A DNA stretch of 38,954 nt from Nanobdellota archaeon (lineage in GTDB: Archaea > Nanobdellota > Nanobdellia > Woesearchaeales > JAHJEM01). The stretch is taken from the NCBI GenBank assembly GCA_018825425.1, contig JAHJEM010000067.1, forward strand, positions 1 to 38,954, given 5' to 3'. Positions 6,442 to 37,429 of this stretch are shown piece after piece. The position numbers and the translations under genes were made by a program. How positions within the stretch are numbered: position 1 is the first letter of the stretch; each line of letters begins with the position of its first letter. The notes beneath the pieces were generated by a model, which was given only the letters and a program-made list of their open reading frames with translations, ran no database searches and was not told where the DNA came from.

Positions 6442-6443
6442 TA

Positions 6444-7982
6444 TTATTCCAACAGAGAATATCCTCCGATTTCCCTCTCATCATTCATGTATAAATCCAT
6501 AGCTAATAATTCTGCGATAATTCCTTCTTCTAATAGCTTAACAGGTCTTCCTATAGGGAACTTCGGCACTTCATGAATGCCTCGGGGATCTGGTTCTGTG
6601 AATCCTTTTTTCTCTCTGACACCTCTGAGCATCCCATAAATAATCCCATTGAATCTTCTCCAGGGTTCACGTCGGAGAAGCACAGTATCTGTCTCAGGCT
6701 CTCTTGCTTCATCCATTATGCCTGTAATATATGCCATTTTGAGATGAGGAACCAGTGTTTCAAAATAGTCTCTTGGGAAATGAAATTGCTCATCACTGCC
6801 TGCTTGGAGCATATAATTGTTGTTGTTTTCTCGTTCTTCTATTGTAAAATAAAGTGCTGCTCTTCGGACTGGCATTATTGTTTTAGTATAGAATCGTCTA
6901 TCTCTTATCAACCCAAGTCTGTTTGCAACAACCAACTCATTTGCAAAATATGTTTGCTTATAGAGCATTTCAGCTCGTTCTTGGGGAGAGAATGCTCCTT
7001 CGCCTTGAAGCAAGATGTCTGGAAAGTCTATTGCAGAACTTCCCCCATCTAATACCTTATCCAATAGCACTATGTTTTGAGTATTTGTTATCTGTCTTTT
7101 TGATGGGTGTTGTTGTCTGCCTTTTCCTAAATCTTCACTTATAAGAGGACTTAAATACATTAGAGTATCAACTAGTACATCCTGATCAAAGAATCTGGGT
7201 GTATAGCTATCCCATGGAATTCCTGGCGGTCTGGTCAATATTGCGTCTGCTGCAAGGATTGCTTGGACCTTTAGCATAATTGCGCGTTCCGTCGGAACAG
7301 AATTCTGGACCAGTTGATGCCTAAGATCCATCATTGCTCTTAAGAAATAGTATGCAGGATGGTTTCTATCAAAGCCTAAGTGATCTATGGCTATATCATC
7401 TGGTACTGCAATTGCATTTTTTCCTTCTCCTGCATCATGGAGAATTGTGGCAGCTTCAGCAGTAATTCCTAAGATTGGATTGTATTTATCAATATTGTAC
7501 TGCTGCCTGACAATTCCTGCTGCGGCCAGAAGACCTAAAGCATGTTCAACCTCTAATTTCCTACCACCTTTACTTGTGCCTGTTGGTGTGGCTCCTTTAC
7601 GTTTATTCAAACCTTCTCTTTCTATCAATAATTCCAGCAATTGTTTTCTAAGAACAGTCTCATCCCTTCCCAAATTGCGTGTAGGGACAAAGTTTGCCAC
7701 TTCCTGCAATGTCTCAAGAGTATCATTCAAAAGAGTTGGATTGTAGTCTGAATATTTTCTTCTTTGATCGTGTTTATGAGATATTTGTGTATGTGCTTCG
7801 GTTACTAATTTTCTTATTAGATTTTTGCGTCCATTAAGATTAAATGCGGTTCTTACTTGAGAATAAAGTGGTTTCTCATCAGCTCTAACTTCGAATGGAG
7901 GCATTCCTTTGTCTCTGCGATAATCTGCTAGTTCATCATTTAGATGTACAATTATCTGATCAATACTGGAATACTTGAGCAT
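6444..7982 (-). CDS. HD-domain protein resembling RelA/SpoT (Mesh1/SAH) hydrolases
   Basis: EVEHAL, ATILHDAGEG (cf. AxLHDxxED), ILTR...Y (cf. LTK) and LLDKVLD (cf. VKLADR) in the expected order. The stop codon lies 2 nt before the next ATG. Confidence 0.6.
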   Translation of the reverse strand: MLKYSSIDQIIVHLNDELADYRRDKGMPPFEVRADEKPLYSQVRTAFNLNGRKNLIRKLVTEAHTQISHKHDQRRKYSDYNPTLLNDTLETLQEVANFVPTRNLGRDETVLRKQLLELLIEREGLNKRKGATPTGTSKGGRKLEVEHALGLLAAAGIVRQQYNIDKYNPILGITAEAATILHDAGEGKNAIAVPDDIAIDHLGFDRNHPAYYFLRAMMDLRHQLVQNSVPTERAIMLKVQAILAADAILTRPPGIPWDSYTPRFFDQDVLVDTLMYLSPLISEDLGKGRQQHPSKRQITNTQNIVLLDKVLDGGSSAIDFPDILLQGEGAFSPQERAEMLYKQTYFANELVVANRLGLIRDRRFYTKTIMPVRRAALYFTIEERENNNNYMLQAGSDEQFHFPRDYFETLVPHLKMAYITGIMDEAREPETDTVLLRREPWRRFNGIIYGMLRGVREKKGFTEPDPRGIHEVPKFPIGRPVKLLEEGIIAELLAMDLYMNDEREIGGYSLLE

Positions 7983-18192: not shown

Positions 18193-19881
18193 TTAGGGGG
18201 TTGGTGGACAGGTTGAAATCCTGTAATTGCCGAGGCCTAGCCTTCCACTATTCTGCCAATCAATTACCAATGCATTTTCTATTCCAACAAAAGGTCCGGC
18301 GGGGTCTGGATCACAGTCTCCTGGACCAGGGTCTGGAATTTGACAATATCCATGTTCATCAAGGAAGTCCATATCATCATCAGTTATCTGATTAGTACCT
18401 GCGAGGTCATCACGAATCTTGGAGTTGTTAATGTAATAGATATCGTGACAATTAGTTGTGGTACCATTAAAGTAGATCCAATCAATACTGGAATTGCTGT
18501 TGGAATCAACATCATCTAGCAATCTTTCAGATATTATGGTCTCAAAACCAAAAGCTGCTGGAACAGACACATTAGTCCAATTCATCAGTCTTTGCAAATA
18601 GTTTGGAGCATAGTCATCGTTTCTCCAATATTGCTTTTCCCTGGAAAGGTTTGCAATATTGCTTATATTATATTCATATTCTGGTATGTTAGAAAGATTG
18701 ATGATAAAATCAGCGTCATCATAACATGTAGGGCATGTAAAAGTTAGTCGACTCTGCCAAGCCAATGGCTCAGGAAGACCATTGATATTCACATAAGATA
18801 CTAGCGTTTGAAAATTATCGTATTGGCTGAACCCATCATCCATGAAAATAACAACATCACTCTCCAGTTTTACAACCCATGTAGAATCCATTTTAATTCG
18901 GATATCCAATACACTTACATTGGTTTCAACTTGCATTTCCTCATGTGTGACATTAAACATCTTGTCAAGGTAGTAATTCACACTATTTTTGTTGTAGAGA
19001 TCAGGATCCCGATATTTAATAGTTTGAGTCAAATTAATTAGATTGGGTAGTGTTGGACCGTAAATCGCGATTTTATCATCCTCATCTGTGACTTGAATTT
19101 CAATATCTGTACCTTCAACCCGCACATTCATAAAATAAATTGTATCTTGAAGTATTGTATTTTTATGCTGAAACTCCAAAACAACATCGCCAACGTATCC
19201 ATCATCAACAAGTGCATATGCTGTGTCAACAAGAAAAATGGTCCTATTACATTTACGATTGTAGATATCAACAAATAGGTGACCATCATCATGATCGGGT
19301 AGAAAATTATCTACATTTAATGTAACGCTATCTAGTGTGTAAGCCTTAACATCTGGTGTCTTGAACTCCTGAAGAGCACCCCAGATTACCTCATCACCTC
19401 CTGCGTCCACTGTTGTTGAATTCAGTCGAAACATGCGCGTTGAACCAGAATCAACCTTCAATATTTCCTCCGCTTCATCGCTAGTCAAAGTAAACATCAA
19501 ATCCACTTCATCCGCGACAGCAGGGTCCCCCCAAACAGTGGGTAAATTGTTGAATGCGCTAATTTCGCCGTCCAGAAGCAAATCAGCATATGTGCATTTC
19601 AAATCAACGAAGTCAATCATTGCATTATTAGGATTTTGTGCAAGAAATTCTGTTAATCCATAAAATGAGTGCCATCCCGCAATACTCATGGATTCCACAT
19701 AATACTCATCTATTATCTCTCCATAATTAAGCAGCCTATTAAGTTTCATATTTGTAAGCTTGAGTTTAGAATCATATGGTGTTCGTATCTCTGTTGTGTA
19801 CAAGAGGACAAACATACCTGCAAGAAGCAATGCAATCAGGGTAAAGAGTATTCCCTTCTTACCATTCAGTCCTACGACCAA
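18193..19881 (-). CDS. Large pilin-like or adhesin protein with class III signal peptide
   Basis: KKG|ILFTLIALLL followed by an acidic, Asn-rich extracellular region with many NxS/T sequons. Confidence 0.75.
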   Translation of the reverse strand: MVVGLNGKKGILFTLIALLLAGMFVLLYTTEIRTPYDSKLKLTNMKLNRLLNYGEIIDEYYVESMSIAGWHSFYGLTEFLAQNPNNAMIDFVDLKCTYADLLLDGEISAFNNLPTVWGDPAVADEVDLMFTLTSDEAEEILKVDSGSTRMFRLNSTTVDAGGDEVIWGALQEFKTPDVKAYTLDSVTLNVDNFLPDHDDGHLFVDIYNRKCNRTIFLVDTAYALVDDGYVGDVVLEFQHKNTILQDTIYFMNVRVEGTDIEIQVTDEDDKIAIYGPTLPNLINLTQTIKYRDPDLYNKNSVNYYLDKMFNVTHEEMQVETNVSVLDIRIKMDSTWVVKLESDVVIFMDDGFSQYDNFQTLVSYVNINGLPEPLAWQSRLTFTCPTCYDDADFIINLSNIPEYEYNISNIANLSREKQYWRNDDYAPNYLQRLMNWTNVSVPAAFGFETIISERLLDDVDSNSNSSIDWIYFNGTTTNCHDIYYINNSKIRDDLAGTNQITDDDMDFLDEHGYCQIPDPGPGDCDPDPAGPFVGIENALVIDWQNSGRLGLGNYRISTCPPTP

Positions 19882-23701: not shown

Positions 23702-23820
23702 GCCTCTGTAGCATAGCGGCTAATGCGTCTGCCTCGTATTGGAAACAGGTTTCCAATCCTTTGGAAAACAAGTTTCCCAAAGTAAGCAGAAGATCGGGAG
23801 TTCAATTCTCCCCAGAGGCT
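23702..23820 (+). tRNA. tRNA-Thr(CGT) with a 46-nt intron at 37/38 (intron 23739-23784)
   Basis: Acceptor GCCTCTG/CAGAGGC with discriminator T, D stem GCAT/ATGC, anticodon stem TCTGC/GCAGA with loop CT-CGT-A^A, and T arm GGGAG-TTCAATT-CTCCC. CCA is not encoded. Confidence 0.92.
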
Positions 23821-24510: not shown

Positions 24511-25452
24511 TTACTGATAAATCAGCCTTATTGCACTGTGAATTATCAAAAGAACATTCTTGAATCTGCCAAACGCTTCATGTACGTTTGCAGCGGTGTG
24601 TGATTCCTGATACTTATTGATCTTGTCCATGACTTGATTCTTTTCTGTTGCGACCTTATAAGCAGACTCAGTATCCTTGTTATAGTAGGTTTTCATGGCA
24701 TTCAAATAGATCTTTTCTACATCCATTGCGACTTCATATAATTCTGAAAGGTTTTTTGGACAATCTTGATAAAGCAGTCTTACTATTCGCTTGATTTCAT
24801 CTGCCATTCGCTCCATGTATTGCGCTAGTTCATAGAAGTTGAAATATTCGAGATCTGTCCCTTCTTTTTTCATGTGTGGATCTGTCATGGCATTTTTTAC
24901 AGCCCGCATAATGACAAAAGTCAATCTGTTAACATCTAGGTCTCTTGCTATTATGTTCTCGGATAATTCTTTGTCAAAATCATTTTTCTTAAGACAACTC
25001 AGTAAATCCTTGAACATTGATCTTATGATGTTGTCATTCTTTCTGATAAGACTAGCAATTGAGATATCATGCATGTTCAAGTAATCCATTGCAACAATCA
25101 TGTTAGCTGTCTGCTCAATAACTTCTAAGGCCATGAGATTCTGTATCATAGCACGAATTTCCTTTGCAATCTCGTTGGTATCATATAGAACCATGATTTT
25201 CTTGTAGTTATTGATGTAGCAAGAGATGATTTTTCTTTGGATGGTCTCAATTTTTTCATTTCTTGCATCCAAAGTTATGGATTTTTCTTCAGAATCTCCT
25301 GCTTGCTTCTGCGGAGAAAGAATGATTTGATTTGAAGTCTTTAACAAGTATATCAAGCTCCCTTTTTCTAGTCGGTTCTGGATTATCCAGTTTTTTGGCA
25401 GTGAAATTACAAAAGAATTGTTGCCAAATTTGATTAATTTGCGATATTCCAT
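24511..25452 (-). CDS. phoU: Archaeal phosphate-uptake regulator (N-terminal AbrB domain plus PhoU domains)
   Basis: EYRKLIKFGNNSFVISLPKNW (AbrB-like) plus PhoU-like RDLDVNR and MERMAD motifs. Confidence 0.85.
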   Translation of the reverse strand: MEYRKLIKFGNNSFVISLPKNWIIQNRLEKGSLIYLLKTSNQIILSPQKQAGDSEEKSITLDARNEKIETIQRKIISCYINNYKKIMVLYDTNEIAKEIRAMIQNLMALEVIEQTANMIVAMDYLNMHDISIASLIRKNDNIIRSMFKDLLSCLKKNDFDKELSENIIARDLDVNRLTFVIMRAVKNAMTDPHMKKEGTDLEYFNFYELAQYMERMADEIKRIVRLLYQDCPKNLSELYEVAMDVEKIYLNAMKTYYNKDTESAYKVATEKNQVMDKINKYQESHTAANVHEAFGRFKNVLLIIHSAIRLIYQ

Positions 25453-25600
25453 CAATATCCCTCGGAATTATTGCTCCTTTTTCCGGAACATTTACAAATA
25501 AGCATATACGTTATATATGCTATATATGGTATATGGATTAAGTATATATTAATAAAGGTATTCCTTTTTTTTAGTTTAGAGGTGAAATGGGGGTGTTCAA

Positions 25601-25878: not shown

Positions 25879-26250
25879 TTATTCAACAGTCTCTTCTTCT
25901 GGAGTCTCGTCAGATGGCTTTTCCTTTGCTGGTTTGTCTTTGGCAGGTTTGGCTCCTGCAGCATCGCCACCAGAAATAACTTCGAGATTTCCTCTTTTAC
26001 CTGCAGACATCTGGATACTGCCTTGATATTCTGCAGCCCATCCGCCAGTAATCTTGATTGTATCTCCTTCTTTAACCTTGTCAATGTCTTGGTTCCATAG
26101 AGTTACTGTGACTGTTCCTGTTGCGTCTTCGCCAGTGCAATTGCATACTTTCAAGAATCCGCCTCTTACTTCTCTAGGCTCTTCTTTCTTAGTTATCTTT
26201 AGTGTTATCTCATCTACAGCAGTTTTGTCCTTCAAATCTGTTACATTCAT
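25879..26250 (-). CDS. Single OB-fold ssDNA-binding protein (SSB/RPA-like) with an acidic tail
   Basis: EPREV...V.....DATGTVTVTLWN...VKEGD.IKI.GG OB-fold signature and a flexible tail ending EEETVE. Confidence 0.85.
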   Translation of the reverse strand: MNVTDLKDKTAVDEITLKITKKEEPREVRGGFLKVCNCTGEDATGTVTVTLWNQDIDKVKEGDTIKITGGWAAEYQGSIQMSAGKRGNLEVISGGDAAGAKPAKDKPAKEKPSDETPEEETVE

Positions 26251-26583: not shown

Positions 26584-27618
26584 ATGATGAAAATGGATGA
26601 AAAAATGGACGAGCCAAAGAAACGTGTGTTGAGTGGAATGAGGCCTACTGGCCGATTGCATATAGGTCATATAGAATCTGTTCTACGGAACTGGATTAAC
26701 TTACAAAAGGATCATGATTGTTTCTATTTTGTGGCAGATTGGCATGCATTGACTACAGATCCTAGCACAAAAGACATTGAGTACAATAGTATTGAGATGG
26801 TTAAAGATTGGTTGGCTTTTGGCGTTGATCCAAAGCAGAGCACAGTGTTTTTGCAGAGTCAAGTTCCAGAGCATACTGAACTCAGTCTGATATTTTCAAT
26901 GCTAACTAATATCGGAAGACTAGAAAGGGTGCCTTCATTCAAAGCACAGCTGAGTTATCTTGCCAATGGCAATGAGGCTAAAGCAGATGAATTACGTGGA
27001 ACAATATCTCAAGGTTTTCTTGGCTATCCTGTTTTGCAGGCAGCAGACATATTAATCTACAAGACAGATGTTGTGCCTGTGGGTGAGGATCAGGTTCCGC
27101 ACATCGAACTGACAAGAGAGATTGCAAGATCATTCAATACCCAATATGGAGGTGTGTTTGTACTGCCTGAAGTAAAGCTATCCTATATCCCAAAGATTCT
27201 TGGAACTGATGGCCAGAAGATGAGCAAAAGCTATGGCAACACAATTTCCCCAGAGGACTCAAGGGAAGACATTGCAGGCAAGGTCAGGAAGATGGTGACA
27301 GATACTAACAGGAAAAGCAAGACTGATCCTGGTGATCCAAATGCTTGCAGTGTATATGATCTTCATCTGATATATCAAGAAGATGAATCGATTGAGATAG
27401 GCCGTAAATGCAGAAATGGAGAAGTAGGATGTTTTGATTGTAAAAGCATGCTTACAGGTCCTATGACAGACATTTATGCTGCATTCAGAGAAAGACGACC
27501 TCATATATTGGATGAAGACGTCAAACGTGTGTTGAGAGAAGGTTCAGAAAGAGCTCGAGAGGTTGCATCAGCAACACTTCAGGAAGTCAGACATATGATG
27601 ATGTTAGACTATCTTTGA
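26584..27618 (+). CDS. trpS: Tryptophanyl-tRNA synthetase, bacterial type, with a C-terminal Cys4 motif
   Basis: SGMRPTGRLHIGH, ADWHALT, FLQSQVPEH, YPVLQAADIL, VPVGEDQ and KMSKS. The exact start Met is uncertain. Confidence 0.95.
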   Translation: MMKMDEKMDEPKKRVLSGMRPTGRLHIGHIESVLRNWINLQKDHDCFYFVADWHALTTDPSTKDIEYNSIEMVKDWLAFGVDPKQSTVFLQSQVPEHTELSLIFSMLTNIGRLERVPSFKAQLSYLANGNEAKADELRGTISQGFLGYPVLQAADILIYKTDVVPVGEDQVPHIELTREIARSFNTQYGGVFVLPEVKLSYIPKILGTDGQKMSKSYGNTISPEDSREDIAGKVRKMVTDTNRKSKTDPGDPNACSVYDLHLIYQEDESIEIGRKCRNGEVGCFDCKSMLTGPMTDIYAAFRERRPHILDEDVKRVLREGSERAREVASATLQEVRHMMMLDYL

Positions 27619-27686
27619 GATAACACTTTGAACTAACTTGAAATGTAGATTGAATTTAAGATAGCGAGAGCTATGTGGAGGAAAAA

Positions 27687-29345
27687 ATGCAAGAGAAACA
27701 ACAAGACAATAATTGGGATTTGGAAACTCCGAGAACTGCCCTGGTTGACAAGAGAACCCGCAGAATTACAAGGATACCTGGGCTTACCGATGCGCAAATT
27801 CAAAATGAGTTGGATATCGCATTTGCCAAGAACACTGTAAGATATGGGGATCCAGAAAATGTCATGGCTGCAAAGCCAGGTACTGAACTAGATGAGTATG
27901 CCTTTCTCTTGGCAGCAGAATACATCCAGAAATATAATCCTAATCATATTGATCCAAAGATGTTCCCAGGCAGCTATGAGCTTGAACGTGAAGTGATAGG
28001 TATGTTTGCAGATCTTCTCAGGCATCCTGACCCTGATAATGCTCTAGGATTTTTCACAGGGGGAGGCACAGCATCTATTGCACAGACTCTCTGGACTTTT
28101 CGAAATAAATTCTATTGTGATTTGGAGTCAGTTGTCACAGGCAAAGACATGACTGAGGTCCTAGTTGCGCCTTTGATCAGAAGAAAAGGAATCAGAAACC
28201 TCTACACTGAACTTGGAAGTAAGGTGAGCCAAAACCATGATGGAGTTGTGCTCGCACCACTTGATATTCACTTTGCTCTTGATAAATCCGTGGATTTTGC
28301 AGGTATGGGGACTGAATCGGGCATTGTCAGATATGATCTTGATGAGAATTTTGATGCAGATATTGATAGCATAGCGCGCACAGCACAGAAAGTCTATGCT
28401 AGTGGAAGAGAGATACTTGCGCTATATGCTGTAGCAGGGGACGTCGGAAAGGGTAGGTTTGCAGACTGTGCAAAGATTGAGGAAGTGTTAAGAGACATGG
28501 AATCAAAATCATTCCCTGCCCTTAAACATAGGCCAAGGGGAAGACCATACCAGACTCCGATAGTTGTAGATGCAGCACAACAATTCATGACAGCATTACT
28601 TCGCGGCGATGAGGATACACCGCATATTCCAGATTGGGACTTTGCAGTTGATGGTGTCCAAGCTTTACTGATAGATCTTCATAAGACAGATATGGCCACC
28701 TATGGATCAAGTATTCTCTTCTATAGGAGTGATGTGACTAAAGCAGATGGACTTGATCTGGCGAACTACACCCAGAACAATGCGCCTTATCTTCATCACG
28801 AAGGTGATCTTGGAATTGATGCAGATACACGGGTCACAGATGCTCTGATCAAGACTTGTCCGACTTTTGAAACCAGCCGTGGAGCTTTAGGTGCTGTTTC
28901 CACATGGATATATATGAACAAATATGGAATGCCTCGACTTTTTGAGGGTCAGAAGAGAGTAGTTGAGAATGTTGAGTACATATCTAAGAAATTGTCAGAG
29001 CCAGACTCTCCATATGAGCTAATGTGTCAACCTCAAAGTGGAATTGTATCATTTAGAGTCAAGGGTAATATTCCTGAATTGAATAAGACAGTATACGATG
29101 TAATCAATGGGGCAGCAAATCCACAGTTTACCATAAGCCACGCAGACCATCTTGGGATAAGAACTGAAGAGCAGATGAGAGAGTATGAACAGAGGAAATC
29201 TCAGTTGAATAAGGGTGAGAAACTCAATGGTCATGACGGTTTGTATGTTCAGGTCATGCCACATATGAGCCATGATCAAGCTCAAACATTAGTGGATGTA
29301 TTGTATCATGTAGGAAAAGAAAGTGTCAGAAGAAAAGCAGCATAG
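27687..29345 (+). CDS. PLP-dependent group II decarboxylase/lyase (MfnA/GAD/S1P-lyase-like)
   Basis: FPGSYELEREVI, FTGGGTAS, HFALDKS, VDAA, WDF, IDLHK (PLP lysine), TSRG and IVSF. ATG 27687 follows GGAGG. Confidence 0.85.
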   Translation: MQEKQQDNNWDLETPRTALVDKRTRRITRIPGLTDAQIQNELDIAFAKNTVRYGDPENVMAAKPGTELDEYAFLLAAEYIQKYNPNHIDPKMFPGSYELEREVIGMFADLLRHPDPDNALGFFTGGGTASIAQTLWTFRNKFYCDLESVVTGKDMTEVLVAPLIRRKGIRNLYTELGSKVSQNHDGVVLAPLDIHFALDKSVDFAGMGTESGIVRYDLDENFDADIDSIARTAQKVYASGREILALYAVAGDVGKGRFADCAKIEEVLRDMESKSFPALKHRPRGRPYQTPIVVDAAQQFMTALLRGDEDTPHIPDWDFAVDGVQALLIDLHKTDMATYGSSILFYRSDVTKADGLDLANYTQNNAPYLHHEGDLGIDADTRVTDALIKTCPTFETSRGALGAVSTWIYMNKYGMPRLFEGQKRVVENVEYISKKLSEPDSPYELMCQPQSGIVSFRVKGNIPELNKTVYDVINGAANPQFTISHADHLGIRTEEQMREYEQRKSQLNKGEKLNGHDGLYVQVMPHMSHDQAQTLVDVLYHVGKESVRRKAA

Positions 29346-29904
29346 GATAGAGAAACATAGACCAAAGTGTGAAGCATTTGCCCACATAGTCCGGCCCATT
29401 TTCCAAACCTATCATACTGAACCATATACATTGTATGATTTTTGCTGTGGAAATGGTCTTACGAGCAGGTATGTTGCAGATTCGCTTGCAGAAAGTATTG
29501 TGCTTGTGGACATAGCAGATATTGGAATGCGCAAGATGATCCAAGGTAAGTTGCCGAATCCAATTTATGTGCAGGCAAGCATAATAGATGTCGAGGTGCA
29601 AGGCAATGCGGCGGTTGTGGCAGTGCATGCATGCGGTGGTTTGACAGACAGAGTATTGGAAAAAGCAGTAGAGGCAAAGGTTCCATTCGGAATCATGCCG
29701 TGCTGTTATAGGTTGGGAATTGCAGAGTATGACTTGGCCCTGCCGCCTGACGCACGGAAGCAACTGTACAAGAATCAACAGGACTATTATGATACCAGAA
29801 GGATACAGTTTGCGATAGAAAATGGATTTGAAGCAAGAATAGAGAGGATTGACAGCAGGATCTCTCCCATGAACAATGTTTTGGTTGGGATTCCAAGGAG
29901 GTAA
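29323..29904 (+). CDS. SAM-dependent methyltransferase (Methyltransf_32-like)
   Basis: YDFCCGNG (motif I), VLVD, VHACGGLTD, MPCCY and SPMNNVLVG; overlaps the decarboxylase stop. Confidence 0.8.
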   Translation: MSEEKQHRIEKHRPKCEAFAHIVRPIFQTYHTEPYTLYDFCCGNGLTSRYVADSLAESIVLVDIADIGMRKMIQGKLPNPIYVQASIIDVEVQGNAAVVAVHACGGLTDRVLEKAVEAKVPFGIMPCCYRLGIAEYDLALPPDARKQLYKNQQDYYDTRRIQFAIENGFEARIERIDSRISPMNNVLVGIPRR

Positions 29905-29906
29905 AA

Positions 29907-31046
29907 ATGAAAGAAGACAAACATATATTATTGGATTTATTGGGGCATGACACCCAGAACTCAAACAGACAGGGTTTTGCGAGTACAAATCAAGCACTGA
30001 ATAGTGTTGCAGAGATTTTAAGCTATGCAGGTGTCAAAGTAGAGTTCCAGGATTATACTGTTGATTCAGGTAACGGTCAACAGGTTGCAAGAAAGAATCT
30101 TGTGGCCAAGCTTGAGGAGAATGCAGAATTACCAACAGTTGGATTGCAAGGACATATTGATACTGTTCCGTTTGGTGACTATGGGGGAAATCCATTAGGG
30201 GAGAAAGAAGGTGGACGAATCTATGGTCGAGGTGCAGTTGATATGAAAGCAAGCCTTGCGAGCATGATCTATGTCATGATGCGAGCACCAGGCATGGCTA
30301 ATTTGGCAGTGAATCCTAGATTGATCATCACGTCTGATGAAGAGGCACATTCATTTGCAGGGATTAAAAGATTTTTAGAAGACAATCCTCCTATTGACTT
30401 TGCAATCTGCGGAGAGCCTACTGGCATGCAGGTTGTAGACAGGGGCAAAGGTGCAATCAGTGCAGTAATTGATGTTTTCGGCAAATCAGGACATGGAAGT
30501 AGGCCTTATCAAGGAGAGAATGCAATTGTAAAAGCTCTTCCACTCCTAAATGATCTGGCAGCATTGAGTTCAGGGATACGATATGTTACCAATCCAGATT
30601 TTGAATCCTCTGATTCGTATTCGCACAGGAGTTCAATGAACATTGGACGGATTCAGGCTGGTGAAACGGTAAATGTCATACCTGCGCAACTGAGAATTGA
30701 GTTGGAGATGCGATGTGTTCAACCCTCAGATAAGTATCTTGCTCTTTTGGAAGAGACTATGGCACCACATCGTGATCTAGTGGGTGCTTACAATGTTGTT
30801 TTTGCCCACGATCCGATGCGAGTTCAGTTGGATAAAGATAGTCCACTATGTGGGAAAGTGTTGATGCTTTCAAATGAAAGTGGAGTTTTTAATGGATTCA
30901 GCGAAGCAGTTCTCTTGAATGACACAGGTATACCTACAATTGTCTATGGTGTTTGTGACAGCAGGATGTGCCACTCAAGTCAGGAATATGTAGATATAGC
31001 AGACCTAAAAGCGTACACACAGAAACTTACTGATTTCATAAGCTAA
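29907..31046 (+). CDS. M20 family metallo-amidohydrolase (ArgE/DapE-like)
   Basis: GHIDTV, GRGAVDMK, SDEE, GEPT, GHGS.P..GENAI and a C-terminal H..EY; the metal ligands appear intact. Confidence 0.9.
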   Translation: MKEDKHILLDLLGHDTQNSNRQGFASTNQALNSVAEILSYAGVKVEFQDYTVDSGNGQQVARKNLVAKLEENAELPTVGLQGHIDTVPFGDYGGNPLGEKEGGRIYGRGAVDMKASLASMIYVMMRAPGMANLAVNPRLIITSDEEAHSFAGIKRFLEDNPPIDFAICGEPTGMQVVDRGKGAISAVIDVFGKSGHGSRPYQGENAIVKALPLLNDLAALSSGIRYVTNPDFESSDSYSHRSSMNIGRIQAGETVNVIPAQLRIELEMRCVQPSDKYLALLEETMAPHRDLVGAYNVVFAHDPMRVQLDKDSPLCGKVLMLSNESGVFNGFSEAVLLNDTGIPTIVYGVCDSRMCHSSQEYVDIADLKAYTQKLTDFIS

Positions 31047-31360
31047 AAATTGAATAAATGCATTCGTAAAAATTCCGGAAAATAAAGGAAAATTATTTAA
31101 ATGACGTGAGAGTTGAAGATGATATGCGAAAAGCAAATGCGAGTGGTTGCCCGTGGCAAAAGCATTGAGTTCTTCTTAGATATAGCAATACACAAAATTA
31201 GTCAATTAATTCAAATTATTGATAAGTTGTTTTTTGATTCTAGGTATAGCTATATCTTTACAAGATTCTGGCGTTGTTAATCTACATTTTTCTTAAATTT
31301 AGGTCTAAATTCAATACAGGTTTTGCCTGAAATATAATATCAATATTATTTGGAAAATAC

Positions 31361-33478
31361 TTGGAAAAAATGATACCGCAACAACTAATGACAGAAACAC
31401 ACTTGGATCAGCTGTCTCTTGGTGGAAAAGGGTTTCACCTTGAGCTACTTCGTAGAGGAGGATTTAATATTCCAAGGACATATAATGGACAAAACTACTC
31501 TTCAATACAAGAATCAGGCCCTTTTGTTGTCAGGAGTAGTTCTGCACTAGAGGATTCTGTAGATCAAACTGCAGCTGGACAATATACCACGCTAAAAGGT
31601 GTGCTTTATGAAAATTTGGAGGAAGCTATTGCAAAAGTAAGGAGCTTTTATGATCAAGGTGATGTTGTTATTCAACCAGATCTTACTCATAGGATGCAAT
31701 TCTCAGGGGTTGCTTATTCAAATCTAAATGGAAAAACATTGCTTTGCATGGGACGACACAATCAGGTCCAGGATATTGTTGAAGGGGTTGATTCTGAGAC
31801 AGAGGTATACATTAAGGGTGATGAAGTCAAATTATTGGGAAGACCCCTTAATCCAGATGTGATATCAAAGGTGAACACGAATGTTCTTGAGGTAGAGAAT
31901 TATTTTGGAAGACCTATGGACATAGAGTTTGCCATAATTGATGATGAAGTTGTGGTTTTGCAAGCACGTCCTCTTCCAAATCTTAGCGATGAGGCATTAA
32001 GAGAACATGAAAGACGACAACTGGGGTGTTTATTCCAGAATCAGGAGGATATCGGACTAGATGAAAAAATTCTTGGTGTGGGTAATTATCGAGAGATTCT
32101 GGGGGATGACAAAGCCACTCTTTTGAGTGCAAGCATATTTAATTATTGTTTTGCAGGAGATGGGGTCTCAAAGTTAGGTGGTGTCCAACTTGGGAGAAAT
32201 GAACTCGGGTATGATGTTGGTACAGAGATTTTTCCATGGGTTTGCATGGTAGGAGGAAATCTGTACTATAATTTTGCTGGTGATGCCCTTCAATTCAGGC
32301 CCAAAGGGATTGATCTTGAACAGATGGTTAAGGTAGTAAATGACGTGTATTTTCCTCAAGTGCGAGCTAAGGTTGACTTACTAAATTATTCTGAGTTGAG
32401 ACTCTATGTGCAGTTCCCAGATCAAGCAGAAGAAATTGGTCTGGATCCAGAACCGTTCAGAGAGCTTGCCAGAAAAAATCTTGAGAGTATTGCATCAATT
32501 GACATCCCGACAGAGGCTCCTAGAAAAAAAATTGCAGAGATCAGATCAACTGCCAAAGAGTGTTACCTGGATATATTAGCTGCTTCAGATGATATTAGAA
32601 CAGGTAGTGCAAAGGAGTATGTCAAGGCTGCAAGATTGGCATTTTTTGCTCTAGAAAACATGAGGATGAATTTAGAACTTCTGCAAATTGAGATGCCTGA
32701 AGAATATGTCCGACTATCTGAACTGTTTGGCAGTGCTGACCCTTCTGGTTTGAGGGATGCTATTGCATATGATGAGAGTATTTCTTCTTTTGAGCTTCCT
32801 GATACTGAGGAGTATAGATATGTTGGATCATTTGAACTCACTCTGCCAAGAGGTGTACCTCCTGATAGGAAATTCAAGAAAGGAAAACCTTTGCAAGGTT
32901 TGCAGGAAGAAGTTGATCAGTTGCGCCAGGTTCTTGGATATCGTGAAAAAGTGAAATTTGAATTGTTCAAGGAATATGATTATTTAGGGCAGCTTGTGAA
33001 TCAGTACGGTGAACTTACCGGTCTTGGAGATGATGTTTTTCATCTGGATCTTGATGAATTGGCTTTGGCATACGAAGAGCCTACCTTGGCAAAATATCGC
33101 ATTGGGATCAAGCATGATGTCTCAGAGAGAAAATTGTTTGGGGACCCATTATTTGAAAAAGACTTGAACAGTGATGAGATCAAAACATATGAGCAAAGGC
33201 CTCAATTGATATTTGGCAGATTACCAGAGGAGACTCACGTACGTGTTGGAGAAAATGCATATATAGTCAATTCTGTTGATCAGACAGTTGAGATACCTGA
33301 GAGTGCTAAGGTTGTTTTTGTTCCTGAGAATATTAGACCTGGATCACATTTGTTTACAGTGTTGTCTGACTATGGTGTGCCTGTGATTAGCGTGCCTAGG
33401 GATGAACTTGCAAAACTTGATAAAGATGAGATTTACTTAAGGAGGGAGAATGGCTATGTCACAATCGATCACGAATAA
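31361..33478 (+). CDS. PEP-synthase/PPDK-like phosphotransferase with ATP-grasp, substrate and C-terminal phospho-His swivel domains (RPH/Cj1418-like architecture)
   Basis: LGGKG..L, VVRSSSALED...AGQY, SGVAYS and DIEFA...LQARP, plus C-terminal PGSHLFTVLSDYGVPVI. Start may be TTG 31361 or a downstream ATG. Confidence 0.82.
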   Translation: MEKMIPQQLMTETHLDQLSLGGKGFHLELLRRGGFNIPRTYNGQNYSSIQESGPFVVRSSSALEDSVDQTAAGQYTTLKGVLYENLEEAIAKVRSFYDQGDVVIQPDLTHRMQFSGVAYSNLNGKTLLCMGRHNQVQDIVEGVDSETEVYIKGDEVKLLGRPLNPDVISKVNTNVLEVENYFGRPMDIEFAIIDDEVVVLQARPLPNLSDEALREHERRQLGCLFQNQEDIGLDEKILGVGNYREILGDDKATLLSASIFNYCFAGDGVSKLGGVQLGRNELGYDVGTEIFPWVCMVGGNLYYNFAGDALQFRPKGIDLEQMVKVVNDVYFPQVRAKVDLLNYSELRLYVQFPDQAEEIGLDPEPFRELARKNLESIASIDIPTEAPRKKIAEIRSTAKECYLDILAASDDIRTGSAKEYVKAARLAFFALENMRMNLELLQIEMPEEYVRLSELFGSADPSGLRDAIAYDESISSFELPDTEEYRYVGSFELTLPRGVPPDRKFKKGKPLQGLQEEVDQLRQVLGYREKVKFELFKEYDYLGQLVNQYGELTGLGDDVFHLDLDELALAYEEPTLAKYRIGIKHDVSERKLFGDPLFEKDLNSDEIKTYEQRPQLIFGRLPEETHVRVGENAYIVNSVDQTVEIPESAKVVFVPENIRPGSHLFTVLSDYGVPVISVPRDELAKLDKDEIYLRRENGYVTIDHE

Positions 33479-34028
33479 GTCTATCTTGAATAAATCGATC
33501 ATGATAAGGCACGGAAGCGGTATTAAGAACTGGGATGATATGGATTACTCAGAACTCATTCGATTGATCAGGCAGGAAAAAGATCTTGAGCTAGACCTAG
33601 CGTGTCTTAAATCAATTAATTTTGATATACTTCGGAATCTAGAGCCTGAATTAGTGATATGTTCGCCTATGACGCGTACCTTGGAAACTGCAAAATTCAT
33701 TGCAAAAGAATTGGGTTTGGAATATCAGATAGATAATAGTCTTCAGGAAATTCACTTTGAAGATTTACCTAAGAGCAAATATGAAAATGGGCCAAAGCAA
33801 ATGATAGATTATCTATTTGAAAAATCATTGCTTCACAAAAATACCTTTGATTGTAAGAAAGTACAAGGCAATGTAATAATTGTTACCCATAGTTTTCTTA
33901 TGCGCCTGATTTACGCTGATCTTTTCAACGTTGATGTCTCGACCCTGAAAGATGATTTGAGATTTAAGACATATTTAGCAGGATTTGCATTGGGTGATGG
34001 CAAAGGTGTGTTTTTGAGAAAAAAATAA
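33450..34028 (+). CDS. Histidine phosphatase superfamily protein
   Basis: IRHG, CSPMTRTLETA, LQEI and IVTHS; overlaps the kinase 3' end. Confidence 0.85.
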   Translation: MAMSQSITNKSILNKSIMIRHGSGIKNWDDMDYSELIRLIRQEKDLELDLACLKSINFDILRNLEPELVICSPMTRTLETAKFIAKELGLEYQIDNSLQEIHFEDLPKSKYENGPKQMIDYLFEKSLLHKNTFDCKKVQGNVIIVTHSFLMRLIYADLFNVDVSTLKDDLRFKTYLAGFALGDGKGVFLRKK

Positions 34029-34044
34029 CCAAAACTTGACCTTA

Positions 34045-34674
34045 TTAAAATTTTAATACGTCCATAACATTCCCTAAATCCTTCTCCTCTATAACAAATA
34101 TAGTATCTGTCCAGCAGCTCATGGTTTCAACTATATTGATCTCCTTATCACCAAACAAGCTATATAGATAGGCCATGACTCCTGGCACATTTTCCAAATC
34201 AGCAGAACTTTTTACTGTGACTTCAATGAGGTTCTCATTTATTCGTATTATCTTGTTCTTGAAGGTTTGCTTTACTCTGCCTAAGAATTCTTGGCTTGTG
34301 ATGACTGTTATGGCATTTACGCCCTCTATTACGCGAAAGAGTTCGTTTTTTGCTTTTACTTCCTTGTTCAGACTCAATAGATTGTTGAAAAATATGTTCT
34401 TTTCAACTACAGCAACAGCTACTTTGTTCTTGATTTCTAGATTTGAATTCTTGAGGATCTGGCGTACCTGATTCTCAGCACCTGGTTTTTTGCGTAGCTT
34501 GTCACCATATCTCCTGCAGGCAATGAGAACTGCATCAAAATGCTTTGCTGGAATCTTGACTTCCTTACATATCTGTCTCGATAGTGCAGAGTAGTTGATT
34601 AACCCAGTTCTCAAGCAATCCTTTGTGCCTTTTGATCCTGAGAGGTATTCCTCAACTGCCCTTTGTATGTTCAT
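34045..34674 (-). CDS. ACT-domain amino-acid-sensing regulator-like protein
   Basis: N-terminal 'DCL..GLINYSALSR.I...AVLIACRRY' and C-terminal ACT 'PGVMAYLYSLF....INIVETMSCWTD'. Start moved to ATG 34674, ~25 nt from the TATA; divergent from argGH. Confidence 0.8.
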   Translation of the reverse strand: MNIQRAVEEYLSGSKGTKDCLRTGLINYSALSRQICKEVKIPAKHFDAVLIACRRYGDKLRKKPGAENQVRQILKNSNLEIKNKVAVAVVEKNIFFNNLLSLNKEVKAKNELFRVIEGVNAITVITSQEFLGRVKQTFKNKIIRINENLIEVTVKSSADLENVPGVMAYLYSLFGDKEINIVETMSCWTDTIFVIEEKDLGNVMDVLKF

Positions 34675-34716
34675 GTGGTATAGCAATGTATCCATGTATT
34701 TAAATGTTTTGTTTCA

Positions 34717-34936: not shown

Positions 34937-36199
34937 ATGAAAACACAAAATGAACAAAACAAGAAAAAAATTATCCTCGCGTACAGCGGGGGACTGGATA
35001 CTTCAGTCATATTGAAGTGGATGGTGAACAAAGGATATGATGTCATTGCCTATGTGGCTGATGTTGGACAGCCAGATGATTTTGAGGCAATAAAGAAGAA
35101 GGCTCTCAAGACTGGTGCTAGTAAGGTCTATGTTGAAGACCTTAAACAAGAATTTGTAGAGAAATACATATTTCCTGCAATACAAGCCAATGCCGTGTAC
35201 GAAGGCAGATACTTGCTCGGAACAAGTTTGGCAAGGCCCCTCATTGCCCAGAAGCAGATTGAAATAGCTCACAAAGAAGGAGCTAAGATTGTGTCCCATG
35301 GATCCACTGGAAAAGGAAATGACCAAGTGCGTTTTGAATTGACATATTATGCTATTGATCCAGATATAATTGTATTTGCGCCTTGGAAAGAACAGGAATG
35401 GTTGAATGAATTCAAGGGCCGAACTGATATGCTTGACTATGCAGAGAAGAATGGAATCAATGTTGATCAATCCAAGAAAAAACCTTACAGCGAGGATGCA
35501 AATCTACTTCATATCAGTCATGAAGCGGGAATCCTAGAGGATCCAAAACATCCAGGAGGAGATGAGATACTCAAGTACTGTAAAAGTCTGAAAGATGCAC
35601 CGGATAAGGAGACATTTCTTGAAATCCATTTCAAAGATGGCATTCCGGTTAAGGTTGTCAATACTGCAGACAAGGTCACTAAGACAGAACCATTAGAATT
35701 GTTTACATACATGAACGAACTTGGTTGCGAGAATGGAATTGGTGTTGTTGACATGGTTGAGAATCGTTTTGTTGGTCTGAAAAGCCGTGGAATATATGAG
35801 ACTCCAGGAGCAACTATATTATATGCGGCTCATCAAGACATTGAAGGCATTGCAATGGATCGTGAGGTCATGAGGTTACGTGATATGCTCAGCCCTAAAT
35901 TCGCAGAGATCGTTTACTATGGCTTCTGGTTTTCACCAGAGATGGACTTCATGATGAGTGCAATTCAGAAAAGCCAGGAGATGATTGACGGAATCGTTTA
36001 CTTGTCCTTGTACAAGGGAAATGTAAAGATCCTTGGAAGGGAGAGCCCAAGTAGTCTGTATGACCAAGACCTTGCAAGCATGGACATAGAAGGTGGTTTT
36101 AATCAAAAGGATTCCGAAGGATTCATAAAGATTAATGCAGTACGTCTGAAAGCAAATAAGGCAATCCTAGATAAACACGGGAAAAAATATTTTGATTGA
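34937..36199 (+). CDS. argG: Argininosuccinate synthase
   Basis: [34 protein letters not shown] and [16 protein letters not shown]; GAGGT SD. Confidence 0.97.
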
Positions 36200-36241
36200 A
36201 TTTTATTTTTTTTTTAAGAATAAGGTAAATTGGAGGACAAA

Positions 36242-37429
36242 ATGAAGCTTTGGGAAAAGGATTTTAATCCTAACTCGGAAATTGAAGATTTTACTGTCGG
36301 AGAAGACTACTTGCTAGATCAAAAGCTAATCAAGTATGATGTTATGGTCAACCTTGCACATGCAAAAATGCTTGGCAAGATTGGAATTCTAAAAGTAGAA
36401 GAGGTCGATAAGATATTGAAGGTGCTCGATGAAATCAAAAGTCTGGATGAGAAAGGAGAATTCAAGATATCAAAACAGCAAGAGGATGTTCATACTGCAA
36501 TCGAAGAATTCCTAATAGAGAAACTCGGTGATCTCGGTAAAAAAATTCATACAGCAAGATCACGTAATGATCAGGTCATGACAGATATCCTGCTCTATTG
36601 CAAGGATGAGCTCAAGCAATCAAATCAAACCATCAACCAACTCATCACATTGCTGAAAGCGTTTTGCAAAGAGCACACAGGCATTCCTATGCCTGGCTAC
36701 ACACACATGCAAAAAGCAATGCCCTATTCTGTTGACAAATGGATGGGTGCATTTATTGAAATGCTCAATGATGATTTGAATGCTATAGACTTTGCACAGA
36801 CCGCAATCGACAAGTGTCCTTTAGGAAGCGCCGCTGGATATGGTGTCCCAGAAAATACTATCAAACTTGATATAAAGATGACATCAGACCTACTTGGTTT
36901 TGCGAAACCATTTGATAATCCGTTATACGTTCAGAACAGCCGTGGGAAATACGAGCAAATTGTCCTTTTTGCTCTAAACCAAGCCATGATGACTATGAAC
37001 AAGCTTGCAACAGACTTATTGTTATTCACAACAAGCGAATTTAACTTTTTTTCTCTGCCAGATGAACTATGTACAGGTAGTTCAATCATGCCCCAGAAGA
37101 AAAACTATGACGTACTTGAGCTTGTCAAGGGAAAGACAAAACTTGTTCAGGCCAAGATGAATGAAATATCTTTGCTCTCTTCAAATCTGCCATCTGGATA
37201 CAACCGTGACATGCAGTTGGCAAAAGAGCCGCTAATTCAAGGAATCGATATTTCAAAATCAGTGCTAAAGATCATGATACTTTCGATCAAAAATCTCAAG
37301 CCAAACAAGACAAGCCTAGAAAAAGCCATGACATCTGAACTCTACGCCACAGAAAAAGCCCTGAAACTGGTCAAGAAAGGTATGCCTTTTCGTGAGGCCT
37401 ATAAGGCGGTTTCTAAAGATTTGAAGTGA
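36242..37429 (+). CDS. argH: Argininosuccinate lyase
   Basis: EDVH, KIHTARSRNDQV, PGYTHMQ, GSSIMPQKKN, LPSGYNRD and GMPFREAY. ATG 36242 follows GGAGG. Confidence 0.96.
   Translation: MKLWEKDFNPNSEIEDFTVGEDYLLDQKLIKYDVMVNLAHAKMLGKIGILKVEEVDKILKVLDEIKSLDEKGEFKISKQQEDVHTAIEEFLIEKLGDLGKKIHTARSRNDQVMTDILLYCKDELKQSNQTINQLITLLKAFCKEHTGIPMPGYTHMQKAMPYSVDKWMGAFIEMLNDDLNAIDFAQTAIDKCPLGSAAGYGVPENTIKLDIKMTSDLLGFAKPFDNPLYVQNSRGKYEQIVLFALNQAMMTMNKLATDLLLFTTSEFNFFSLPDELCTGSSIMPQKKNYDVLELVKGKTKLVQAKMNEISLLSSNLPSGYNRDMQLAKEPLIQGIDISKSVLKIMILSIKNLKPNKTSLEKAMTSELYATEKALKLVKKGMPFREAYKAVSKDLK

Follow-up and report, generated by a model that had tools for sequence, protein, structure and literature searches.

Why would a genome-reduced archaeon keep a gene for a tryptophanyl-tRNA synthetase (TrpRS) at the head of a row of enzyme genes? 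The question is raised by contig JAHJEM010000067.1 of a Woesearchaeales genome, 38,954 nt long and referred to below, over its entire length, as the window, in which six open reading frames (ORFs), all on the + strand at 26584-34028, encode a TrpRS, a pyridoxal phosphate (PLP) enzyme, a methyltransferase, an M20 hydrolase, a dikinase and a phosphatase. We propose that this block represents a real and conserved functional module that is linked to tryptophan (Trp) and contains an extra aminoacyl-tRNA synthetase (aaRS), as supported by comparisons of sequence and gene order among related loci. By analogy with known clusters, the module would be a Trp-diverting pathway with its own dedicated aaRS, similar to the tyramine clusters found in lactic acid bacteria except that the antiporter of those clusters is lacking, and we give this reading a probability of about 0.5.

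The preliminary description of this DNA had reported six co-oriented genes, and the ORF list of the window matches their positions exactly; the six families named there are likewise confirmed by Pfam, all above the gathering cut-offs. The genes are closely spaced, with 56 nt between the TrpRS and PLP genes, an overlap of 23 nt between the PLP and methyltransferase genes, 2 nt between the methyltransferase and M20 genes, 314 nt between the M20 and dikinase genes, and an overlap of 29 nt between the dikinase and phosphatase genes, which reproduces the overlaps, the 2-nt gap and the gap of ~310 nt described before. The block and its one long gap are as follows.

26584..27618, + strand: extra, bacterial-type TrpRS, 344 aa; Pfam tRNA-synt_1b 214.6 bits, NCBIfam TIGR00233
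27675..29345, + strand: rare group II PLP decarboxylase-like enzyme, 556 aa; Pyridoxal_deC (PF00282) 51.8 bits
29323..29904, + strand: small class I S-adenosylmethionine methyltransferase, 193 aa; Methyltransf_32 42.8 bits
29907..31046, + strand: M20 metallo-hydrolase, ArgE/DapE-like, 379 aa; Peptidase_M20 81.7 bits, M20_dimer 59.5 bits
31047..31360, no strand: AT-rich gap of 314 nt between the M20 and dikinase genes
31361..33478, + strand: rifampin phosphotransferase (RPH)-like dikinase, 705 aa; PPDK_N 52.6 bits
33450..34028, + strand: histidine-phosphatase-superfamily protein, 192 aa; His_Phos_1 51.3 bits, RHG motif

The first gene is classed on its sequence as encoding a bacterial-type tryptophan-tRNA ligase. 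The protein scores 300.4 bits against the trpS model TIGR00233 (cut-off 176.75), with residues 12-339 covering profile positions 2-326 of 328, and its best NCBIfam matches are to bacterial-type models. The HIGH and KMSKS motifs can be read in the translation, and H19, G21 and M206-S207-K208-S209 are invariant in an alignment of 30 sequences, comprising 26 of the 120 listed matches (the top and the named ones) and four sequences from related loci. The source genome (G000; 143 contigs totaling 1.51 Mb, completeness 82%, contamination 3.3%) contains three class Ib aaRS genes. Besides the window TrpRS, these encode an archaeal TyrRS on contig C59, which scores 323 bits against NF006330, and, on contig C126, an archaeal-type TrpRS that scores 346 bits against NF008926 (cut-off 320). 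The second, archaeal-type trpS that the preliminary description had suggested looking for is thus present, and given this canonical enzyme the window TrpRS is an extra copy. An extra aaRS beside an archaeal TrpRS and an archaeal TyrRS is found in all five cluster-bearing reference genomes (a TrpRS in G000, G403 and G069, a TyrRS in G121 and G255); G243 contains only the two archaeal enzymes, and at its locus the PLP gene is a distant one and no aaRS is present.

The labeled homologues of these proteins come from Woese-, Pace- and Nanoarchaeota, that is, from DPANN archaea. The window TrpRS is 50-54% identical to DPANN-labeled TrpRS, 66% identical to the closest, unlabeled cluster among the matches listed, and ~50% identical to ordinary, named bacterial TrpRS. 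In a tree of the same sequences plus one outgroup (31 rows), it falls within a 22-row clade with support of 99/99 that holds all of the DPANN-labeled and all of the cluster-linked rows, and the five named bacterial rows lie outside. This topology fits a single acquisition of the gene from bacteria and its subsequent spread within DPANN.

The second gene encodes a member of the group II PLP-dependent decarboxylase family (PF00282; 51.8 bits against a gathering score of 27) that lies outside the characterized subfamilies, an assignment based on its sequence and predicted fold. The family is rare: a search of 1.84 billion proteins gave only 20 cluster representatives at E<=1e-30, and none of them exceeds 37% identity. 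In an alignment of 23 family sequences, made from 19 of the 20 best HMMER matches (P0092 was dropped as N-terminally short) and four more, D295, H332 and K333 are invariant, the lysine lying in a D-x-H-K motif; from the known motifs of such enzymes we take K333 of the H-K pair to be the PLP-binding lysine and D295 to be the aspartate that pairs with the pyridine nitrogen. The AlphaFold2 model (pLDDT 84.6) matches MfnA in Foldseek with a target-normalized TM-score of 0.86 (E 3e-20), and it matches DfoJ, CSAD, S1P lyase and the tyrosine (Tyr) and Trp decarboxylases about equally well. A complex prediction for the TrpRS and the PLP enzyme gave a score of 0.00 and a mark of 0.32 and is counted neither way.

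What ties the PLP enzyme to Trp is the order of genes around it. Eleven metagenome loci, two reference-genome loci and the window reduce to 12 distinct loci when identical ones are merged (L045 with L043, L050 with L049), and their PLP proteins share 27-66% identity. A TrpRS gene lies directly upstream of the PLP gene and on the same strand in nine of the 12, and it is of the bacterial type in seven (the window, L041, L042, L043, L048, L058 and L059) and of the archaeal type in two (L046 and L049). Since both types of TrpRS occur in this position, it is the function of TrpRS that is tied to the PLP gene, and transfer of one single fragment does not account for the pairing. The other three loci comprise L047, where tRNA-Trp is followed by the dikinase and phosphatase genes, L044, which has <1 kb of upstream DNA, and L051, which has none of these genes. 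The identities of the TrpRS and PLP proteins co-vary across loci (Spearman 0.73 for 28 pairs, which are non-independent and include one identical pair), and tRNA-Trp genes lie inside four of the 12 loci (L046, where the gene contains an intron, L047, L048 and L058). The preliminary description had allowed that the combination might be conserved nowhere else, and it is found to recur, with TrpRS-PLP pairs in 9/12 loci, dikinase-phosphatase pairs in 14/14 and PLP, dikinase and phosphatase genes together in L047; its Trp link is reinforced by the tRNA-Trp genes, which are inside five loci when L021, a dikinase locus discussed below, is included.

The genes that accompany the TrpRS-PLP pair vary more. 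A methyltransferase gene is found downstream in 5/12 loci, belonging to Methyltransf_32 in the window, L042 and L058, and its place is taken by Methyltransf_23 in L041 and L059. Metallo-hydrolase genes are present in six of the 12, as M20 in the window, L049 and L051, AstE/AspA in L041, Amidohydro_2 in L042 and M28 in L059. Both functions, the hydrolase and the methyltransferase of type 32 or 23, undergo non-homologous replacement at the same position. For the window methyltransferase, a search of the ESM Atlas returned generic Methyltransf_32 clusters only (from bacteria, archaea and viruses) and no functional lead. Regulators of the Lrp/AsnC type are found in 5/12 loci, and near-canonical genes for elongation factor EF-1alpha in L046 (twice) and L049, in both cases with one directly 3' of the PLP gene.

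A Tyr version of the module is found in two DPANN reference genomes (L061:715-7168 in G121 and L062:8203-14571 in G255). The gene order is Lrp, PLP decarboxylase, bacterial-type TyrRS, a Methyltransf_32 homologue in the same position as in the Trp loci, an intron-containing tRNA-Tyr (C1-G72, A73) and a PPDK_N protein of ~695 aa with its ATP-grasp in the C-terminal half. The PLP decarboxylase, which is among the weaker PLP-family matches, scores 163 bits against PF00282, and the TyrRS matches TIGR00234 over its full length with 354 bits. The adjacency of cognate aaRS and PLP enzyme persists over deep divergence, as judged by sequence comparison, and this demonstrates that the PLP family is functionally tied to Trp, or to Tyr in the case of the sister module. 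The adjacency is seen with either type of aaRS, often with the cognate tRNA gene embedded, and in two amino-acid flavors.

The tRNA genes raise the question of whether aminoacyl-tRNA itself takes part in the chemistry. TrpRS and tRNA-Trp, in some loci with EF-1alpha, would then supply Trp-tRNA as a substrate or donor (Tyr-tRNA in the sister module), the dikinase would phosphorylate an acceptor, the PLP enzyme and the methyltransferase would modify the residue while it is bound to tRNA or after its transfer, and a hydrolase of the carboxypeptidase type would free the product. Such a scheme accounts for the location of tRNA-Trp in five loci and of tRNA-Tyr in both Tyr loci, always within ~1.5 kb of the anchor genes, for EF-1alpha right after the PLP gene in L046 and L049, the former with two TrpRS and two EF-1alpha genes, for an aaRS type that varies while the amino acid is constant, and for dikinase pairs beside a housekeeping TrpRS or tRNA-Trp even where no PLP gene is present. 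We nevertheless consider it unlikely, as the PLP enzyme has a group II decarboxylase fold and decarboxylation requires a free carboxylate, no conserved aminoacyl-tRNA transferase of the Fem/GNAT, CDPS or LanB-like kinds was recognized in the loci (a GNAT occurs only in L042), the EF-1alpha is near-canonical and possibly a housekeeping protein, and the tRNAs have ordinary CCA and GUA anticodons and mostly host-type identity. If true, it would represent a new class of aminoacyl-tRNA-dependent chemistry in genome-reduced archaea, to be set beside the known routes of SerRS/PSTK/SepSecS, of SepRS/SepCysS or of peptide aminoacyl-tRNA ligases, which follow a similar logic.

The cluster tRNAs are mostly archaeal in identity, and an imported orthogonal aaRS/tRNA pair is rejected on this ground. 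The tRNA-Trp genes of L047 and L021 have G1-C72 and A73, like that of G000 itself, and only L048 has G73. For L047:6967-7042 and L058:12339-12414, ARAGORN draws tRNA-Trp with an 8-bp acceptor stem, which has an extra U:A pair over the usual 7; when they are read with 7 bp, the former has G1-C72 and A73 and the latter is irregular, with a G1/A72 mismatch yet A73. G000 has 12 tRNA genes when introns are disallowed, and its sole tRNA-Trp (C88:4682-4828) carries a 73-nt intron.

What might the dikinase and phosphatase contribute? The dikinase family consists of about 44 clusters, and its named members are from DPANN archaea only and are always annotated as 'hypothetical' or 'PEP/pyruvate-binding'. 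The window protein, for which the gene caller sets the start 9 codons further in (696 aa), has an N-terminal ATP-grasp domain, a helical middle domain and a C-terminal swivel domain with an invariant His, and near the C-terminus G652-S653-H654 is invariant in the 34 family members that were aligned. The best fold match of the AlphaFold2 model (pLDDT 89.8) is RPH (5hv1, E 2e-14), over the full length and ahead of PEP synthase, and 5fbs was also matched. The 'phospho-His' label given to this gene in the preliminary description is therefore supported both by the invariant G-S-H and by the full-length RPH match. Pfam finds PPDK_N in the protein and neither a PEP-utilizers domain nor a PEP/pyruvate barrel, and PEP synthase models score far under their cut-offs; PEP synthase and PPDK, as candidate functions, are ruled out by the absence of the barrel. 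The score against the RPH equivalog model, 25 bits against 999, means that it is not an RPH orthologue.

RPH converts ATP and its substrate to phospho-substrate, AMP and Pi, according to PMC4844700. Like RPH, the window dikinase is composed of three parts, an ATP-grasp, a substrate domain and a swivel domain with the His, but it is only 12-14% identical, has global TM-scores of 0.23-0.29, is ~150 residues shorter, has a middle domain with no demonstrated likeness to the rifampin pocket and, unlike RPH, is always paired with a gene of the His-phosphatase family. It is best described, from sequence and model, as an RPH-like 'acceptor, water dikinase' with the acceptor unassigned. Its partner (His_Phos_1, 51.3 bits against 21.7), with an RHG motif in the translation and no subfamily cut-off reached, is placed by sequence in branch 1 of the histidine phosphatase superfamily.

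An extra aaRS of cross-domain origin is a classic signature of self-resistance, as with indolmycin, mupirocin and agrocin 84, and such clusters include the TrpRS of the indolmycin and chuangxinmycin clusters, the LeuRS of agrocin 84 and the SerRS of albomycin. The block could thus be read as one that makes or counters a TrpRS-targeting compound, a reading close to the TrpRS inhibitor that the preliminary description had also suggested, in which the bacterial-type TrpRS is the insensitive replacement and the dikinase, phosphatase, hydrolase and L042 GNAT carry out biosynthetic, pro-drug or inactivating steps. Like the self-resistance clusters, the window has an extra aaRS among tailoring enzymes, and this aaRS is a cross-domain one beside an intact housekeeping copy. 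The loci are sporadic and island-like in distribution, a STAND NTPase adjoins the L058 cluster, and the closest solved structure to the dikinase is of an enzyme that inactivates an antibiotic (RPH, according to PMC4844700). However, the loci contain no recognizable scaffold-building enzymes and no exporter, two of them use an archaeal-type TrpRS that is not obviously insensitive, the tRNA and EF-1alpha genes are unexpected, and the hosts are metabolically poor, genome-reduced archaea of 0.8-1.7 Mb. For related TrpRS operons, Mukai et al. (2017; PMC5370408) favor Trp metabolism and encoding over antibiotic production. Production of, or defense against, an inhibitor is in our view as doubtful as the tRNA-dependent scheme.

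The Trp link extends to the dikinase pair. Fifteen dikinase loci were compared (13 from species-representative genomes, the window and L047), and at the 3' end of the dikinase gene an abutting or overlapping ORF of the His-phosphatase family (~190-240 aa) is found in all 14 in which this can be observed, L016 stopping at the gene. An archaeal-type TrpRS adjoins the pair in L009, L013 (in two copies) and L019 (split in two ORFs), and in L021 and L047 the gene immediately upstream of the dikinase gene is that of tRNA-Trp. Together with the window, 6/15 loci are beside a TrpRS or tRNA-Trp gene, where ~0.5 would be expected by chance according to our own rough estimate (~3 targets, a 1.2-Mb genome and a 13-kb neighborhood). 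The TrpRS-PLP pair and the dikinase-phosphatase pair are both present in the window, and in L047 the PLP, tRNA-Trp, dikinase and phosphatase genes stand in a row. The idea that dikinase genomes always carry an extra TrpRS is refuted, as eight of the ten searched (L014, L016 and L017 being outside the search) have just two class Ib aaRS genes, and the pair can thus do without one.

Several of these loci have peculiarities of their own. In L013 (7429-9747), a Micrarchaeota metagenome-assembled genome, two adjacent archaeal-type TrpRS paralogues of 363 and 403 aa, with 26% and 36% identity to the archaeal TrpRS of G000, lie divergently upstream of the dikinase and phosphatase genes. The archaeal-type TrpRS of L019 (13436-14594; Nanosalina J07AB43) is split into overlapping ORFs of 215 and 182 aa, which represents either a frameshift or a decaying copy. 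In its intron mode ARAGORN calls a CUA-anticodon tRNA, labeled Pyl and with a 30-nt intron, at L015:14700-14815 on the - strand, ~2.6 kb downstream of the dikinase pair; this may be a false positive.

Between the M20 and dikinase genes, the 314-nt gap contains no hidden tRNA, whether or not introns are allowed, no riboswitch or other known RNA (no Rfam match at E<=1; the fold z-score of -1.36 is not significant) and, as candidates for a scaffold-peptide gene, only short and unconvincing ORFs. A promoter from which the dikinase pair is transcribed separately is probably located in the gap. The equivalent gap in L047 contains the tRNA-Trp gene. The M20 protein encoded before the window gap is under every subfamily cut-off, including those for ArgE/DapE (TIGR01910, 146.4 bits against 217.6) and for acetylornithine deacetylase (151.3 bits against 297.7).

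How, then, might a Trp-diverting pathway operate? The PLP enzyme would draw Trp from the pool, in the simplest case by decarboxylation to tryptamine, and the methyltransferase, hydrolase, dikinase and phosphatase would tailor, activate or recycle the product, with the dikinase converting ATP, acceptor and water to AMP, Pi and phospho-acceptor via a phospho-His. The extra TrpRS would keep tRNA-Trp charged during the Trp drain or in the presence of the amine, which is a likely competitor for TrpRS, and proteins of the Lrp/AsnC or ACT type would tie expression to the amino-acid level. The role of a charging safeguard for the TrpRS is taken from that proposed for tyrS-1 in tyramine clusters. According to PMC3315439, tyrS-1 co-evolves with tdcA and tyrP in the tyramine cluster and a second gene, tyrS-2, is located elsewhere, hisS is found in the histamine clusters of lactic acid bacteria, and the proposed role of an extra tyrS or hisS beside the decarboxylase is to safeguard charging or to act as a sensor of the amino acid. 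The window therefore resembles the tyramine (tyrS-tdcA-tyrP-nhaC) and histamine (hdcA-hisS) clusters in having a group II PLP decarboxylase beside an extra cognate aaRS with the housekeeping copy elsewhere, and in the co-evolution of the two neighbors. In contrast to those clusters, it has no amine antiporter and no T-box, the host being an archaeon, its aaRS is of cross-domain origin, the module has in addition tRNA genes, a methyltransferase, a hydrolase and the dikinase and phosphatase, its decarboxylase belongs to a distinct and uncharacterized family, and it is Trp that is concerned, with Tyr in its place in the sister module.

A number of results weigh against such a pathway. The PLP enzyme reaches no NCBIfam subfamily cut-off among MfnA, PanP, GAD and TyrDC (the best is MfnA, with 72.2 bits against 299.4), seven other family members score 66-115 bits against the MfnA cut-off of 299 and reach no equivalog either, and the fold search fails to separate decarboxylases from S1P lyase. 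Because no equivalog cut-off is reached and the fold search is unselective, decarboxylation of Trp is something that we infer, with Trp or a Trp derivative as the presumed substrate. No amine antiporter or multi-transmembrane protein adjoins the PLP gene in any of nine loci checked, based on a crude hydropathy count of ORFs with at least three predicted transmembrane segments; such ORFs are found only in L042, at a distance of ~5 kb upstream. The listed ORFs of L058 and L059 include no such protein either. The tRNA-Trp and near-canonical EF-1alpha genes are not predicted by a simple small-molecule pathway and are not explained by one that acts on the free amino acid. As a candidate orthologue of the window dikinase, the Tyr-flavor PPDK_N protein is rejected (hhalign probability of 9% over 45 columns), and both the high proportion of dikinase genomes with two class Ib aaRS genes only and the occurrence of the dikinase pair without a PLP gene in 13/15 loci loosen the connection of that pair to the module. 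The window M20 is just 25-28% identical to the M20 proteins of the other loci and possibly belongs with argG/argH, and no single independent contig among those listed bridges the M20/dikinase junction. Finally, no trpB or IGPS was detected in G000 at its 82% completeness, and the destruction of imported Trp looks costly.

The same results bear on whether there is a pathway here at all. The preliminary description had pictured one fixed six-gene pathway, and in this form its cluster is not supported, given the 13 dikinase pairs that lack a PLP gene and the low identities of the M20 protein, even though synteny upholds the Trp linkage and the extra aaRS. The product it suggested, a tryptamine-type compound or a TrpRS inhibitor, and the pro-drug or detox steps it assigned to the M20 and the phosphatase are conjectural. 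One could go further and regard the TrpRS-PLP-methyltransferase unit, the M20 with argG/argH and the dikinase-phosphatase unit as merely juxtaposed, with their wider associations the result of island-like co-transfer. The absence of a shared signal from the 314-nt gap is in keeping with this, as are the accessory nature of the whole right-hand part of the window, where argG is missing from the five closest genomes, and the break of assembly contigs within the gap (see below). Yet L047 has all of the PLP, tRNA-Trp, dikinase and phosphatase genes in a row, the dikinase loci are found beside TrpRS or tRNA-Trp more often than the estimate for chance, and in the Tyr loci, too, genes for a PLP enzyme, an aaRS and a methyltransferase are found together with those for a tRNA and a PPDK_N protein. 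We therefore rank simple juxtaposition as less likely than either the tRNA-dependent or the inhibitor scheme.

That G000 is an apparent Trp auxotroph, on the gene content noted above, suggests yet another possibility, in which the module serves to acquire Trp and charge tRNA with it. The hydrolase would free Trp from peptides or N-acyl-Trp, the PLP enzyme and the TrpD-like and BtpA proteins would salvage Trp from precursors, and the extra TrpRS and tRNA-Trp would boost charging when Trp is scarce. TrpD-like and/or BtpA proteins are indeed encoded in 4/12 PLP loci (L044, L049 and L058 have the two together, whereas L047 has BtpA only), and the Lrp/AsnC regulators and recurrent peptidase-clan hydrolases would also have a place in such a scheme. 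However, all sequence and fold matches of the PLP enzyme are decarboxylases or S1P lyase and none forms Trp, the TrpD-like protein, at 146 bits, is under the trpD cut-off of 199, and the methyltransferase and the dikinase-phosphatase pair are left without a role. Of the alternatives considered, Trp acquisition is the least likely, and we regard it as improbable. Diversion of Trp by a dedicated pathway remains the reading that we prefer.

The integrity of the window was evaluated with independent sequence data. In run X2, from a different study, 80% of the sampled words are present, and each of the pieces listed shows 0-1 differences to the window, with some that bridge the phosphatase to the ACT gene and the ACT gene to argG. 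In run X1, a possible source of the window, the Logan contigs break at 31108-31134 in the M20/dikinase gap with a 27-nt overlap, and the two contigs are of similar depth (10.9 and 12.1). For the M20/dikinase junction, the support therefore comes from the original assembly and from the similar arrangement of genes in L047. One X1 contig has T>G at 30954, and there may be strain variation at the gap.

The block as a whole is, judging from its distribution, an accessory neighborhood that has spread laterally among DPANN archaea. In 40 relatives (three of the same genus, three more of the same family and 34 of the same order; genome sizes in the group are 0.6-2.1 Mb), the PLP enzyme is found in none, the dikinase has no real homologue (weak matches only, of 16-22 bits, in four genomes) and a bacterial-type TrpRS is found in one (G020, a genome with 6% contamination, where the gene lies on a contig of 3 kb and its product is 40% identical). 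A search of 400 other genomes of the phylum yielded two strong and three weak matches to the PLP family. The GC content is 0.41-0.44 at 27-31 kb and 0.35-0.40 in the surroundings. A PhoU/AbrB-like gene at 24511-25455 is present in 5/5 of the closest genomes, argG was not found in these five, and the right-hand part of the window, with argG/argH, is accordingly classed by gene content as accessory. In G403, a STAND/NACHT-type NTPase of 782 aa (L058:5199-7547, - strand) lies between Lrp genes upstream of the TrpRS-PLP cluster, which suggests an island-like setting.

The literature searched contained no description of a TrpRS-decarboxylase module, supplements, where operon drawings might be, lying outside the search, and nothing on the dikinase/phosphatase pair among the matches listed. 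A related precedent is given by Mukai et al. (2017; PMC5370408), who report that some CPR bacteria and DPANN archaea carry an additional TrpRS-A gene, which is rare, accompanied by tRNA-Trp and an uncharacterized ORF1, and who leave the function open. Those operons resemble the present loci in that an extra TrpRS and tRNA-Trp coexist with a canonical TrpRS in DPANN, and L046 may be such a case, but the window TrpRS is of the bacterial type and lies outside the archaeal/eukaryotic TrpRS-A clade. The words pyridoxal, decarboxylase, methyltransferase, kinase and elongation factor have no occurrences in the full text of PMC5370408. L046 (3409-10150) itself contains TrpRS (430 aa), PLP enzyme, EF-1alpha, intron-containing tRNA-Trp, TrpRS (373 aa) and an EF-1alpha cut by the contig end, that is, two TrpRS and two EF-1alpha genes within ~6 kb, and may correspond to the TrpRS-A2/TrpRS-A-like clusters of those authors.

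DPANN archaea, which are thought to be metabolically minimal, maintain and exchange a module built on a cross-domain aaRS, often with its cognate tRNA. Two uncharacterized families, the rare PLP enzyme and the DPANN-only phospho-His dikinase with its phosphatase partner, gain a testable handle on their function. The module also bears on why cells retain duplicate aaRS genes and on how episymbionts handle or exploit host-derived aromatic amino acids.

The block is located between ssb, upstream, and an ACT gene and argG/argH, downstream, as the preliminary description had placed it between ssb and the arg locus.

25879-26250, - strand: ssb (Ssb-like OB-fold protein), upstream of the block
34045..34695, - strand: ACT-domain protein; ACT_7 25.3 bits, slightly under the cut-off
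34937-37429, strand unspecified: argG and argH, downstream of the ACT gene

The ACT-domain protein is possibly an amino-acid-sensing regulator of the block. It is homologous to an ACT protein of L058 that is encoded 6.7 kb from the PLP gene (E 1e-13), and its N-terminal ~60 aa only resemble an ORF upstream of the L010 dikinase, which belongs to a family common to L011 and L012. The remaining window genes are archaeal housekeeping genes for Trm1, an aIF5B-like GTPase, AlaRS, GDH and the Ssb-like OB-fold protein. Three long ORFs of 394, 512 and 562 aa at 5257-7982 and 18193-19881 have no Pfam family at E<=0.001. The default scan reports no tRNA in the window, and ARAGORN, only with introns allowed, finds an intron-containing tRNA-Thr(CGU) at 23702-23820. 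The argH ORF, at 399 aa, covers only positions 13-387 of the 455-position argH model, and its C-terminus looks short.

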